In this document: one piece after another, positions 15,621 through 20,489 of the stretch
How the letters are laid out: each line of letters opens with the position of its first letter
Position numbering within the stretch: the first letter of the stretch is position 1
Assembly (NCBI GenBank): GCA_036785375.1
Contig: JAWMAR010000110.1
Coordinates: 5,828,001-5,892,000, forward strand
Source: Leucoraja ocellata
Taxonomy: Eukaryota
DNA: 64,000 nt
Direction: 5' to 3'
The notes under the pieces: generated by a model
Database searches by the model: none
Told to the model about the DNA's origin: nothing
Seen by the model: only the letters and a program-made list of their open reading frames with translations
Made by a program: the position numbers and the translations under genes

Positions 15621-16091
15621 CCATATCTTTCAGCTTTTGAGTCTGAAGCTTTCCTGGTCGTTCTCTCTCCTCAATTACAAACCCAAAAGATGGTATGCGA
15701 TGAAAAAGCCTAAAGGCTTTTACTATGAACTGTTCATGGGTGACAAGATTGTAACAGTCTTCCTGAGGATCAAGATGAATTGTTTTTCCTTGTAGTTCCT
15801 GTGGATGAAGCTGATCATCCACATTGTGTGCAGAGGGGCTCCTCCATTCCTCAGGAAAACACTGATCCTCAGTTGGTACCAGTTCATGGACTACATACGA
15901 AAAGACCAATTGCGAGTGAGACAGGTGCATGCACGTCCTCAGAAATGTCCTTAATCCAACAGGCCCATAAATTTCAACAGGCTGTTTGTTTAAGAGAGAA
16001 CTACTCTGGAGGCTTACTGTGCATAGAAGTCCAGGCAAACCAAATAGATGATCACCATGAAGATGAGTAATGAAAATTTTTGAAATTTTAC
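15621..16091 (-). CDS. ELAC1: ELAC1 coding exon 2, 471 nt
   Basis: Acceptor tttgcag|GT at 16091; KISKIFITHLHGDHLFGLPGLL contains the HxHxDH metallo-beta-lactamase motif; ends KLKDMG|gtaat at 15621; phase consistent with exon 1. Confidence 0.96.
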
Positions 16092-16304
16092 CTGCAAAAT
16101 TAAAAAAATTGAGATTAGTATTTCAGTTTTATTCTTGGTTCTCTCAAACAAGCTTTAAATTGGAATTTTTCTTAATTAATTATCATTACTTGCAAGCAGA
16201 AAAGATTTGTGCAAGAAACTGCAGATGCTGGTTTAAACCGAAGATAGACACAAAAAGCTGGAGTAACTCAGCAGGACAGGCAGCATCTCTGGAGAGAAGG
16301 AATG

Positions 16305-16338
16305 AGTGACGTTTCATGTTGAGACCCTTCGTCAGACT
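16305..16338 (-). ncRNA. Decayed minimal hammerhead-like motif in a Penelope tail (ELAC1 intron 1)
   Basis: Minus strand agt CTGACGA agggtctcaacat GAAA cgtc act; N7 varies (C); helix II partly broken. Confidence 0.45.
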
Positions 16339-16390
16339 GGTTAGGGATAAGGGAAACGAGAGATATAGACGGTGATGTGGAGAGATAAAG

Positions 16391-17427
16391 TAGCTATGTT
16401 ACAATACTTACCTTCAGTGGCGCTGCAATTCTGCCACTGGCCGTGTGCGCGATTTTGGCGCCTTTGAGAGTGGGGTGGGGGGTTAAAACGTGGTTTTATC
16501 CTACCTTGTCCTGGAATATATTTGGTTGGAGTGCAAGCTTTTGCTGGAGAATCGTTCCGACGGGCGTTCTGTGTATTTTTTTTTATTTTTTAAATTGCCC
16601 GACTAGTTCGGCGCTGGAGTAATTTTAAAATCAGCTTCTAAAGGCGTCAACGCCGATAACGGGGACGGACTTCAGGTACGGTACAGGTAAAAGAAAGCTG
16701 TTTATTTTATGTATAAAAGTGCCCCTTAAGATGCCTTTAATTCACATTTTAAGTTGCGAAACGGTGATTTTTCCCCCATACGACCCAGCAGTACTTTCCC
16801 TGCCGATATGGGGGTATAAAATCACTGCAACCGCAACGTTCCAAATGATCGCGTTCCAGAAAACCCACTCGCAAGATGTGCCATTAATTTACAGGTATTA
16901 AACATTCTGTAAACAATCTTTCCATTTGGCCTATAAATCCATGACAATGAGATTTAAAAATTATGTTATATTGTGAATTCTTGTGTGAATGTTATTTGGA
17001 CACTTCGGCTATTTAAAAATGTTAATCTATTCTTAAGAAATTGATGGATGTTTAGATCTAGTAATTTAATTTTGTAATTAGCTACAATTAGGTAACTAAC
17101 TAATTATATGCTTTAATTTCAAGTCATCTAAGTAAGATTGTTTCATATTTGTTTCAGAATGCTTCAATCTATAATAACTGAAAAATTCTTTCAGTTCTCT
17201 TAATTTTTAAGAAAGTTATGGGCTTTTGACTGTACTCGATCTTAAGTCAATGGAAGAGCAACAGGGAACAAGATGCTAATTTCCGAGTATGAAAATGGCC
17301 ATAACCTTTTTAATACTGAAGATATGAAAGTGAATTAGGTGTCAAATTAAACTTCTTTTTATGCTTCATCTGATGGGATAAATTACAGACTTGATTTTTT
17401 AAATCTCAAAATTTTGTAACATTGCTA
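16391..17427. mobile_element. Non-autonomous DNA transposon (hAT-like MITE) in ELAC1 intron 1
   Basis: 14-bp TIRs tagctatgttacaa / ttgtaacattgcta (1 mismatch); 7-bp duplication gataaag at 16384-16390 and 17428-17434; interrupts a Penelope tail. Confidence 0.8.
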
Positions 17428-17711
17428 GATAAAGAACAATGAATGCAAATGATATGCAAAAAAGTAACGATGATAAAAGAAACAGGCCATTGTAAGCTGT
17501 TTGTAGGGTGATAACGAGAAGCTGGAGCGGAGAGAGGGGGAGAGAGAGCTCTGAGGGGGGGGGAGGTGAGGGCGGGGGCGGGGAGAGGAGAGCGTCCTGA
17601 GCGGGGGAGAGTTGGGGAGGTGGTGGGTAGTGGAGGATCGGAGCAGGAGGGGGAAGAGCGGCCCGAGGGTGGGAGAGTGGTGGTGGGGGGGGGGGGGGGG
17701 GGGGGGCGGGC

Positions 17712-17860
17712 CGCTTTGGCTGGGCCGGGCTGGGCTGGGCCGGGAAGGGATGGGCTGGGCTGGGCAGCTTTGGCTGGGATGGGCTGGGCCGGGCAGCTTT
17801 GGCTGGGCTGGGTTGGGCTGGGCCGGGATGGGCTGGGCCGGGCAGCTTTGGCTGGGCCGC
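17712..17860. repeat. (GGGCT/GGGCC)n G-rich tandem repeat at start of ELAC1 intron 1
   Basis: Repeated ggcagctttggctgggctgggccggg units preceded by a G run (17685-17706). Confidence 0.9.
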
Positions 17861-17874
17861 TCGGGGAGCCTCAC

Positions 17875-18031
17875 CTGCTCTCAACTGGCTCCGCATCAAC
17901 TGTGTCTGCGTCCCCTCGCCGCAGTCGAAGAGCCAGCACTCGCCCTCGTAGCGCAGCGCCACGGCCGAGGCTCCGCGCGTCGGCGACGGGTAGGCCGAGC
18001 CGGTGCCCAGGAAGGTCAACTCCACCGCCAT
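17875..18031 (-). CDS. ELAC1: ELAC1 (tRNase Z short form) coding exon 1, 157 nt
   Basis: ATG at 18031; [53 protein letters not shown]; donor GCAG|GTGAG at 17875/17874; lies in a CpG-rich segment. Confidence 0.97.
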
Positions 18032-18200
18032 AGCGGCCGCTCCGAGTCAAGGGCCGCCCGGCCTGCGATCAGACCAGGAGCAGCAACTCTCCGCTATGAT
18101 CTTTGCAGCAGCAGCGGCGGCAGCGGCAGCAGACAACGCTGCACCTCCCCGTCAAATCAACCCGCCCTCAATCACCCACACTCACGTCATCCTGCAAACC
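18032..18200 (-). promoter_or_regulatory. Probable ELAC1 CpG-rich promoter/5' UTR
   Basis: CpG-dense region spanning exon 1 and upstream; GC box CCCGCCC at ~18160-18167 and CRE/E-box-like TGACGTGA (plus strand tcacgtca, 18182-18189). TSS not determinable; a possible acceptor (cgcag) ~30 nt above the ATG leaves room for a non-coding upstream exon. Confidence 0.5.
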
Positions 18201-18486
18201 TAGGATCGGATCCAAAAAAAAAACTTGCAAAAAAATCTTTAAATAATCCGGTGACAGACAGAAAATGCCGGAGTAACTCAGCGAGACAGGCAGCATCTCT
18301 GGAGAGATTCTGGACGCTTCGGGTCGAGACCCTTCCTCAATAACGGGGGGAAATGTATTATAATTCTGCAGAAGGGTTTATTCCTTTTCTCCACTGATGC
18401 TGCCTGTCCTGCTGAGTTACTCCAGCTTTTTGTGTTTATCTTCAAGGTATTATCACTGTATGGTGTTAAAACAAAAGACTGCAGAT

Positions 18487-18519
18487 CAAAGATCCTATAG
18501 CAGAGCTATAGGATCTTTG
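18487..18519. mobile_element. 33-bp palindrome with 8-bp TSD (transposon footprint or minimal element)
   Basis: ctgcagat|CAAAGATCCTATAGC-aga-GCTATAGGATCTTTG|ctgcagat. Confidence 0.8.
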
Positions 18520-19029
18520 CTGCAGATGCTGGTCAATACACAAAGTGCTAGAGTAACAGGCAGCATCTTTGGAAAACATACATGGGACCAGACCCTTCTC
18601 CACCGCAGGTCCCCGGTAGCAGAGATGTGAGAAACAGCAGGTGCTGGAGTAACTCAGCAGGTCAGACAGCATCCATAGAAAACATGGATAGGTGATGTTT
18701 CAGGTTGGGATACTTTAGACTGGATCTAATAGGGAGGAAGAAAACTAAAAGAGATGTGGTTGGAACAGAGCTTTGCAAGTGATAGCTCGAAAAGAAAGAC
18801 AAAGTGCTGGAGTACCTCAGCGGGTCAGGCAACATCTCTGGAAAACATGGAAAGGTGATGTTTCGTGTCCAGACCCTTGTCCATCTCATGCCCCTGGTAT
18901 TACCTATGTCCCTGGTAATGTGGAACCGGGCTCGTGAGATGCAGACACCAGCAACAGCTGGTGCTGGAGTAGCAGCGGGTCAGACAGCAACTGGTTCCTG
19001 TACCAAAGAGGATCATGAAGTCCCTTGAG

Positions 19030-19865
19030 AGACTGGTACTCACCTGCGACCCCTGGTTAAACCCTACCTGGACCCCCTGCAGTTCGTTTACTAAACAAAG
19101 TTAGGGGTTGAGGACGCCATCATCCACCTGTTCCATCATTCCTATGCTCACCTGGATAAGCCGGGAAGCACTGTGAAAGTCATGGTTCTTTTACTTCTGC
19201 AGTGCTTTTTACACCACCCGACCTGCACTAGAGGGAGCAGCCTGATGAAGATGCGAGTGGATGCTCCATTGGTATCCTGGATCACCAACGACCCAACCAC
19301 AATATATCAGCCTACAGAACTGTGTCTCGGACATTGTAGTGAGCAACACTGAGGCCCCACAGGGGACCGTCCTCTCTACCTTCCTGTTCAGACTTCAGAT
19401 ACAACTTGGAATCCTACCAGAAGTTTTTAGGTGACTGCAATTGTGGGCTGCATCAGTGAGGGGTGGGAAGCTGAATACAGAGGTGTAGTCAATGACTTTG
19501 TTGAGTGTTGTGGACTGAATCATCTGCAGCTCAACACTGACAAGACTAAGGAATTCGTGGTGGACTTGCTATTGATGGAGTGCTATTCTTGCTATTAAGA
19601 ATGGTTAGCCATTTAGAACAGAGATGAGAAAAAACTTTTTCACATAGAGAGTTGTAAGTGTGTGGGATTCCCTGCCTCAGAGGGTAGTGGAGGCTGGTTC
19701 TCTGGATGCATTCAAGAGAGAGTTAGATAGAGCTCTTAGGGATAGTGGAGTTCAGAGATATGGAGAGAAGATAGGAACAGGGATTGTGGATGGTCAGCCA
19801 TGATCACATTAAATGGTGGTGCTGGCTCGAGGCCGAATGGCCGACTCTTGCACCTATTATCTTTT
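19030..19865 (+). mobile_element. Rex1-like fragment (19030-19570) followed by CR1 3' end (19590-19865)
   Basis: LDPLQF, GVEDAI, PQGTVL remnants; CR1 tail. Confidence 0.7.
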
Positions 19866-20489
19866 CACTTGTTATAGTACCTGCCTCAACTACTTCCTCA
19901 AGCAACGTGTTCCATATACCCACCACCTGCTACGTGAAAAGAAGTGGTGGGTATATGGAACAGCAAGCACTTTGTATTCCACTTGGGCACCTCAGAACCC
20001 AACAGTATGAAAATTGAATTCTTTAATTTTAAGTAGTCCCCACACCCCCCTCCCCTCCTCTCTCTTTCTTTCCTGTGTCCCTCCCACCACCCGTGCCTAG
20101 AATTACAATTACCTTTATTATCATTCAGACCTTACGGTCTGAACGAAATTTCATGTCTGCAGTCATACATACAATAATAAACAACAATAAACACAATTAA
20201 CATCCACCACAGTGAGTCTTTCAAGCACCTCCTCACTGTGGTGGAGGCAAAAATCTTAGGGCTGCAGTCTCTTCCCCCCCTCTTCGCTGAGGCGATACCC
20301 CACCGGGCGATGGTACAAACAGTCCCGCGGCTCACTGAACCCCGCAACCATTTCAACCACTATTGAAATATCTCTTTGGCTTACATTGCATGCATGTGTG
20401 TGTTTGTGTGTATAAATACATATATTTATATGTACATTTTTAACTTTGCAAAATCCAGTTTGAGAAACACTGCAATGGCAGTTACAGCT

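Follow-up and report, generated by a model that had tools for sequence, protein, structure and literature searches.

Results

A Duplication-flanked Palindrome Lies Upstream of ELAC1

The window, by which we mean the whole 64,000-nt stretch of DNA that was analyzed, contains the first coding exon of ELAC1 and, upstream of it, a short palindrome set in an interspersed repeat. The features are listed below in window coordinates, with the target duplication abbreviated as TSD.

17875..18031, minus strand: ELAC1, first coding exon (match to human ELAC1; single copy in the assembly; context only)
18479..18598, plus strand: host, an interspersed repeat of very high copy number, here as a degenerate copy broken at its start by the insertion (families D2, D5 and D6; paralogue comparison)
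18479..18486, plus strand: left copy of the TSD, ctgcagat (sequence; single in 10 of 10 paralogous copies)
18487..18506, plus strand: transposon end A, first 20 nt, up to the C that precedes AAGAT in long elements (pattern identical to long-element ends)
18505..18506, no strand assigned: GC common to both ends (sequence; 389 loci of the same class)
18505..18519, minus strand: transposon end B, first 15 nt (sequence)
18520..18527, plus strand: right copy of the TSD (sequence)

The exon read from the ATG at 18031 on the minus strand matched human ELAC1 (3ZWF) with an E value of 3.9e-23, and its splice donor was read from the sequence at 17874. The palindromic stub lies 456 bp upstream of this ATG, immediately beyond the edge of the CpG island, so that its placement next to ELAC1 in the sequence-only reading holds; we saw no sign of function for the stub beside this gene. 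Between the CpG island and the stub there is an inverted pair of host-repeat copies (18253-18305 and 18388-18440), and more copies occur at 16239, 18625 and 18788. The earlier description of the surroundings as a Penelope tail was right about their repetitive nature, the host being a very high-copy repeat, but the Penelope label was not confirmed, and Rfam gave no match for the host repeat across 16000-19100.

As had been reported for this locus, two 15-nt arms (18487-18501 and 18505-18519) are 100% complementary with 3 nt between them, giving an insert of 33 bp, and the octamer ctgcagat stands on both flanks (18479-18486 and 18520-18527). Among the five short inverted repeats listed for the window, this palindrome is the only one flanked by a duplication. 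Hairpins with arms of at least 15 nt appeared in 0 of 20 shuffles of the window, indicating that the palindrome is not explained by chance, and the folding z score of the region was -7.7. The octamer is present once in each of 10 host-repeat paralogues (8 exact and 2 with one change; the ten include two duplicate pairs), which indicated that the two copies at the locus are a true target duplication. Two other perfect inverted repeats, at 19908-19962 (19-nt arms, 17-nt spacer) and 20203-20245 (14-nt arms, 15-nt spacer), have no flanking duplication and are unrelated to the family described here.

The sequence-only reading had taken the insert for an excision footprint built of 15 + 3 + 15 nt. 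The footprint reading stands, but the anatomy is better described as 20 and 15 nt joined over a 2-nt microhomology. End A (18487..18506) would then be a full-length 3' tail from a staggered cut, the GC at 18505..18506 would be the end-joining microhomology (20 + 15 - 2 = 33), and the tail of end B (18505..18519) would have been shortened by 5 nt in repair. The inner part of the terminal inverted repeat (TIR) is missing from the stub, and the stub is probably inert. The locus by itself is ordinary.

Stubs with the Same Ends Recur throughout the Genome

The 15-mer of the TIR occurs 7,040 + 7,114 times in the 3.44-Gb genome, compared with 1 + 1 for a reversed control, and TIR-to-TIR stubs of 18-48 bp were found at 5,231 loci, compared with 2 for the control. 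Both 15-nt arms are kept in 1,122 stubs, and 389 loci belong to the same 33-bp class as the ELAC1 stub. Because some stubs have been amplified within host repeats, the figure of 5,231 is not a count of events. The 166 stubs that were fetched represent 135 sites and 24 lengths, indicating that most of them, though not all, are independent events; 50 unbiased stubs represent about 43 sites.

In the 50 stubs that come first in genome order, the TSD was exact in 36, had one mismatch in 12 and had two mismatches in 2. They measured between 19 and 41 bp and were most frequent at 22 (mostly host-repeat amplified), 33 and 38, and these modes at 33 and 38 bp bear out the earlier expectation that short copies would cluster near 33 bp. 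An exact flanking duplication at length 8 was present in 71 of 105 cases, and at lengths 5-7 and 9-11 in none. Over 97 sites with a perfect TSD, the symmetrised target preference was G/C-T-Y-N-N-R-A-C/G.

The recurrent lengths can be written as sums of two retained ends. Ends of the 20-nt type account for 38 (20 + 20 - 2), 40 (20 + 20), 33 (20 + 15 - 2) and 28 (15 + 15 - 2); 19-nt ends account for 32 (19 + 15 - 2), 37 (19 + 20 - 2) and 39 (19 + 20); and 18-nt ends account for 34 (18 + 18 - 2) and 36 (18 + 18). Templated insertions are found among the junctions besides microhomology and blunt joins. Stubs of 37 bp were present at 10 of the 135 sites, in what is an enriched sample. Two forms were set aside as repeated evidence: the 36-bp 18 + 20 form, of which all 9 fetched copies share flanks and represent one event amplified in a host repeat, and most of the 22-bp copies, which were likewise amplified in host repeats.

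Several arrangements of stubs were also observed. A duplicated site, with copies 203 kb apart on one contig (L219:201 and L220:201, G000:C2), carries stubs of 33 and 41 bp with the same TSD, reflecting either two repairs or later slippage. Stubs stacked or nested within a few to 150 bases of each other were seen at L006, L042, L116, L120, L170, L290, L299 and L301, and stubs were also seen within long members of their own family (L034, L177, L191 and L291); both arrangements may reflect either re-insertion hotspots or local hopping.

Long Elements with These Ends Encode a P-type Transposase

Longer elements sharing the TIR and bounded by 8-bp TSDs, which the sequence-only reading had called for, were found. 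Among the fetched loci, 29 long copies (2 of them stub composites) had paired ends and an 8-bp TSD whose two copies differed at no more than one position; most were of 0.4-2.8 kb. There were also coding elements of 5-12 kb. A Pfam search returned P-type RNase H matches for 137 of the 150 scored out of 216 candidates. Of 20 RNase H loci inspected over 10 kb, 6 had the gene enclosed by both ends and a TSD; these elements measured 5.1-6.9 kb and had 20-nt ends. A second group, recovered after extension, measures 10.4-11.9 kb and has 18-nt ends, with matching TSDs in about 3 of 5 to 4 of 6 of those showing both ends. The transposase gene lies between these TIRs, with a TSD, at L080, L082, L090, L091 and L092 and in the C376, C1699, C424 and C14 copies.

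Complementarity between the two ends of long elements reaches about nt 25-27. Copies at independent sites are ~95-98% alike; in some of them every exon that was detected is open. Copies with internal deletions come in many sizes, and the long deleted copies keep the inner TIR. Three of the 29 long copies (L001, L228 and L229) have one 19-nt and one 20-nt end, each with its own TSD. In one further element (L281+L282, G000:C14:3553967-3565224), the transposase is 93-94% identical to that of the 18-nt-end elements, yet the ends are of 20 nt with an 8-bp TSD; as judged from these sequences, end length is altered there with little change of the enzyme. Some transposase-bearing copies (L085-L091 and L093-L095) have been amplified in larger duplicated units on many small contigs, in which 10-kb stretches are 96-98% alike.

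The three Pfam domains TNP RNaseH_N, GBD and RNaseH_C (PF21787, PF21788 and PF21789) were present in 4 of 4 open reading frames. In L082 a THAP domain (PF05485, E 1.4e-9) was detected on exon 2, and an exon 1 with two cysteines was seen in L082 and in the C376 copy. With predicted exon joins, the gene would carry THAP over two small exons and the RNase H and GBD domains on one large exon. The protein matched the fly transposase 6P5A with an E value of 1.7e-41, with D230, D303, E531 and the D(2)H motif aligned, and 7 of 8 residues of the GTP site were identical to those listed in PMC7776569, the exception being K400, which is R here.

By its THAP domain and GTP-binding DDE core, a gene between TIRs and an 8-bp TSD, the family is, on sequence criteria, a member of the P superfamily. 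Like the hAT superfamily, the present family has an 8-bp TSD with T and A at its positions 2 and 7 and termini of the YARNG form, but its transposase is of the P type. In hAT elements, the donor ends form hairpins on the flanks with no TIR kept. No hAT family appeared among the Pfam matches of the four open reading frames, and together with the 6P5A match this settled the type of enzyme as P rather than hAT.

Among the 120 listed database relatives of the transposase, most of them nameless, the closest are unnamed (55-72%). The named ones include mollusc (39-43%) and arthropod (about 30-35%) proteins, and a cod-like fish protein matched partially, at 54% over 41% of the query; none of the 120 is a named THAP9. 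The earlier label "THAP9-related" is therefore apt at the level of the superfamily but not as a closer tie, since the named relatives in that list are mostly invertebrate P transposases. From these similarities, horizontal transfer of the transposase family is possible. A third P-type transposase was noted in L084 (G000:C1483:63100-73099), an 843-aa open frame with 57-80% identity to the others and no copy of the present TIR within about 5 kb.

Retained Ends Stop before an Inner AAGAT Motif

In 100 distinct long ends, the motif AAGAT follows after 18 nt in 9, after 19 nt in 19 and after 20 nt in 46; 25 have no inner AAGAT and 1 has it elsewhere. Ends of the 20-nt type running on as AAGAT number 5,241. 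Among stub ends, 1,771 have a base other than A directly behind nt 20 and 109 have A there, these figures being ends and not sites. By eye, 100 listed A cases comprise 4 that continue as AAGATAG (one of which copies its own flank and another of which has no TSD), 11 ambiguous 30-mers and 26 in which the final 10 or 12 nt of the opposite arm are bluntly joined on; the remainder are substitutions or templated repeats. Run-on was seen in 2 of the 100 listed 18-nt stub ends (193 in total) and in 0 of 64 19-nt ends. The retained length was at most 20 nt in 99 of 100 ends from 50 unbiased stubs, the single exception being a scoring artefact. A few stubs keep 23-36 nt of one end; a separate tally of retained lengths over-represents exceptions by design and is not a rate.

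The counterparts of full elements with GGGAC|AAGAT ends are blunt stubs reading GGGAC|GTCCC. Four such 36-mers (18 + 18) occur at four unrelated sites with perfect TSDs, and their tip is unable to self-pair, which ruled out a microhomology artefact. In the sequences compared, the stop of the stub end tracks the motif and not the distance: whether 18, 19 or 20 nt precede AAGAT, the stub retains that same tail, also in the mixed 19 + 20 combination. The tails read from the stubs are of 18, 19 and 20 nt, unlike the 17-nt tail of Drosophila. The ~17-nt overhang that the sequence-only reading assumed is accordingly replaced by a putative inner cut 18-20 nt inside the end. AAGAT is also nt 3-7 of the TIR itself, as read directly from the sequence, which makes it the complement of transferred-strand nt -3 to -7.

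Search for One Site in Full and Scar States

We looked for a single site occupied by a full element in one copy and by a stub in another. The assembly contains no second copy of the ELAC1 5' end beyond the window, and no stub was found among duplicated full elements sharing one site and one flank (14 sites, all full). Matches of a long element and a stub at one site (L178, L131 and L166) were rejected as full/stub pairs because their end types differ, which points to separate insertions at a host-repeat hotspot. Contigs of four sequencing runs (organisms D, A, B and E) on the ELAC1 site were swamped by repeats and did not reveal an orthologous allele, whether empty or filled; forms like the 28-, 33- and 38-bp stubs were present in all four runs, at unplaced loci.

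Discussion

Origin of the Stubs

The 33-bp palindrome upstream of ELAC1 is very probably the end-joined scar of an excised P-superfamily transposon. The long elements sharing its TIR, their P-type transposase, the 8-bp TSDs and the length modes all support the P-element-type excision footprint that had been proposed for the locus. A P-superfamily element would have inserted beside ELAC1 with an 8-bp target duplication and later have been excised in the germline. The transposase would make one cut at the terminus and a second, on the opposite strand, at C^AAGAT, so that 3' tails of 18-20 nt remain on the chromosome; this position of the inner cut, which is deduced from repair products, we hold to be probable. 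At the ELAC1 site, the GC tip of one 20-nt tail would have paired with the GC that occupies nt 14-15 of the other tail, after which 5 nt would have been trimmed and the gaps filled, giving 20 + 15 - 2.

An alternative accepts that the scars are real and places the true inner cut elsewhere, either more than 20 nt inside the end with trimming or ~17 nt inside with templated re-synthesis, so that 18-20 nt would reflect a preference of repair. It could draw on the self-complementary GC tip used in the commonest joins, on the 11 ambiguous 30-mers, which possibly use AAGAT as a microhomology, and on the few stubs with 23-36 nt of one end. Nevertheless, we regard it as unlikely. Blunt 20 + 20, 19 + 20 and 18 + 18 joins are all present, the last of these at four unrelated sites from AC-tip ends, which cannot self-pair; nt 19 is absent from every GGGAC end listed; and the stop shifts with the motif over three end lengths. 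The long-retention cases are themselves weakened by the one that copies its own flank and the one that has no TSD.

Stubs could be miniature non-autonomous elements that move as such, each TSD coming from the stub's own insertion, as might be suggested by the two termini and 8-bp TSD on every stub, by the recurrence of the 33- and 38-bp forms hundreds of times and by the uniformly full state of the 14 duplicated sites. We find this very improbable given the 24 lengths over 135 sites, where microhomology, blunt joins and templated joins all occur, the end variants of stubs, which mirror those of each long subfamily, and the common flanks of identical multi-copy stubs, which indicate spread with a host repeat. 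Inverted repeats are prone to deletion, and long elements could have collapsed independently of transposase, by hairpin or cruciform processing or by deletion between their inverted ends; internally deleted copies of many sizes would fit such a process. However, the ends are complementary to about nt 25-27, yet stubs stop mid-stem at nt 18-20, and the inner TIR is retained by long deleted copies, making this explanation very improbable. Against mobile miniature elements there is the further point that the inner TIR and subterminal parts bound by the fly enzyme, as described in PMC7776569, are absent from the stubs. We retain excision followed by end joining as the probable origin of the stubs.

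Relation to Known P Elements

In Drosophila melanogaster, the P transposase makes one cut at the 3' end of the element and a second, on the opposite strand, 17 nt into the TIR (PMC7776569), and fly donor sites heal to the TSD plus parts of both 17-nt tails through short microhomology, blunt joins or templated insertions (PMC2895639, Tables 1-3). The present family is like the fly P element in its THAP domain, split RNase H with a GTP-binding insertion, DDE residues, 8-bp TSD and CA..TG ends, and its scars are like those of fly P donor sites in containing the TSD and pieces of both TIR tails joined via 1-3-nt microhomology, bluntly or with templated sequence (PMC2895639). The scar type is already known from fly experiments. 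Compared with the fly element, the tails here are of 18, 19 or 20 nt instead of 17 and differ among subfamilies and between the ends of one element; the TIR match is about 25-27 nt instead of 31, in elements of 5-12 kb; and the scars are natural germline records in thousands, whereas the fly scars are laboratory products.

Zebrafish Pdre and vertebrate THAP9 likewise represent P-superfamily transposases in vertebrates, and Pdre resembles the present family in having deleted copies, 8-bp TSDs and TIRs. The TIRs of Pdre are of 13 bp, however, and human THAP9 is single-copy without TIRs. In the portions of PMC7776569 and PMC8230255 from which these comparisons are drawn, we found no excision scars or tail lengths for Pdre or THAP9. 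The P element of the repleta group is, like the present one, a natural P family in which the distance from terminal to inner repeat is not the same at both ends, being 32 bp at one and 30 bp at the other (PMC3698922). Its spacing offers, by analogy, a precedent for elastic spacing without footprint data, and the word "footprint" is absent from the main text of that paper. Unlike the present family, the repleta-group P element and BuT5 have 3-bp TIRs, 16-17-bp sub-TIRs and 8-9-bp TSDs (PMC3698922).

The search of the open-access literature returned no P-type footprints in a vertebrate genome and no tails other than 17 nt. Palindromic Galileo remnants were reportedly once described. They were not found in the available portions of PMC4168063 or PMC2775673.

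Possible Basis of the Variable Tail

In the fly structure, according to PMC7776569, the transferred strand loops out and pairs with the 5' part of the non-transferred strand. By analogy with that re-paired helix of the fly transpososome, the freed 5' end might speculatively pair with the transferred strand at nt -3 to -7, and the tail between the paired parts would then be a loop of tolerated length. Such a re-pairing role for AAGAT seems to us a real possibility, of slightly less than even probability. Extended to the superfamily, it leads to a proposal that we advance tentatively and hold a little short of evenly balanced: P-superfamily transposases may have no fixed stagger, an inner motif repeating terminal bases 3-7 may place the cut by re-pairing, and the tail may be an elastic loop of 18, 19 or 20 nt, even unequal within one element. 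The genome would then hold thousands of such records together with open-frame genes, and among these there may be a native vertebrate P transposon that is still competent.

What is new here is that the limit of retention tracks the motif over 18-, 19- and 20-nt ends, that the blunt joins provide a control and that the inner motif repeats the terminal one. A natural family in which a single motif goes with three tail lengths supplies a direct prediction, and ready substrates, for the rule of inner-strand cleavage in P elements. The stubs also document, in large numbers, how long 3' tails are end-joined in a vertebrate germline and are possible lineage markers, and they point to open-frame P transposase genes that are candidate tools.
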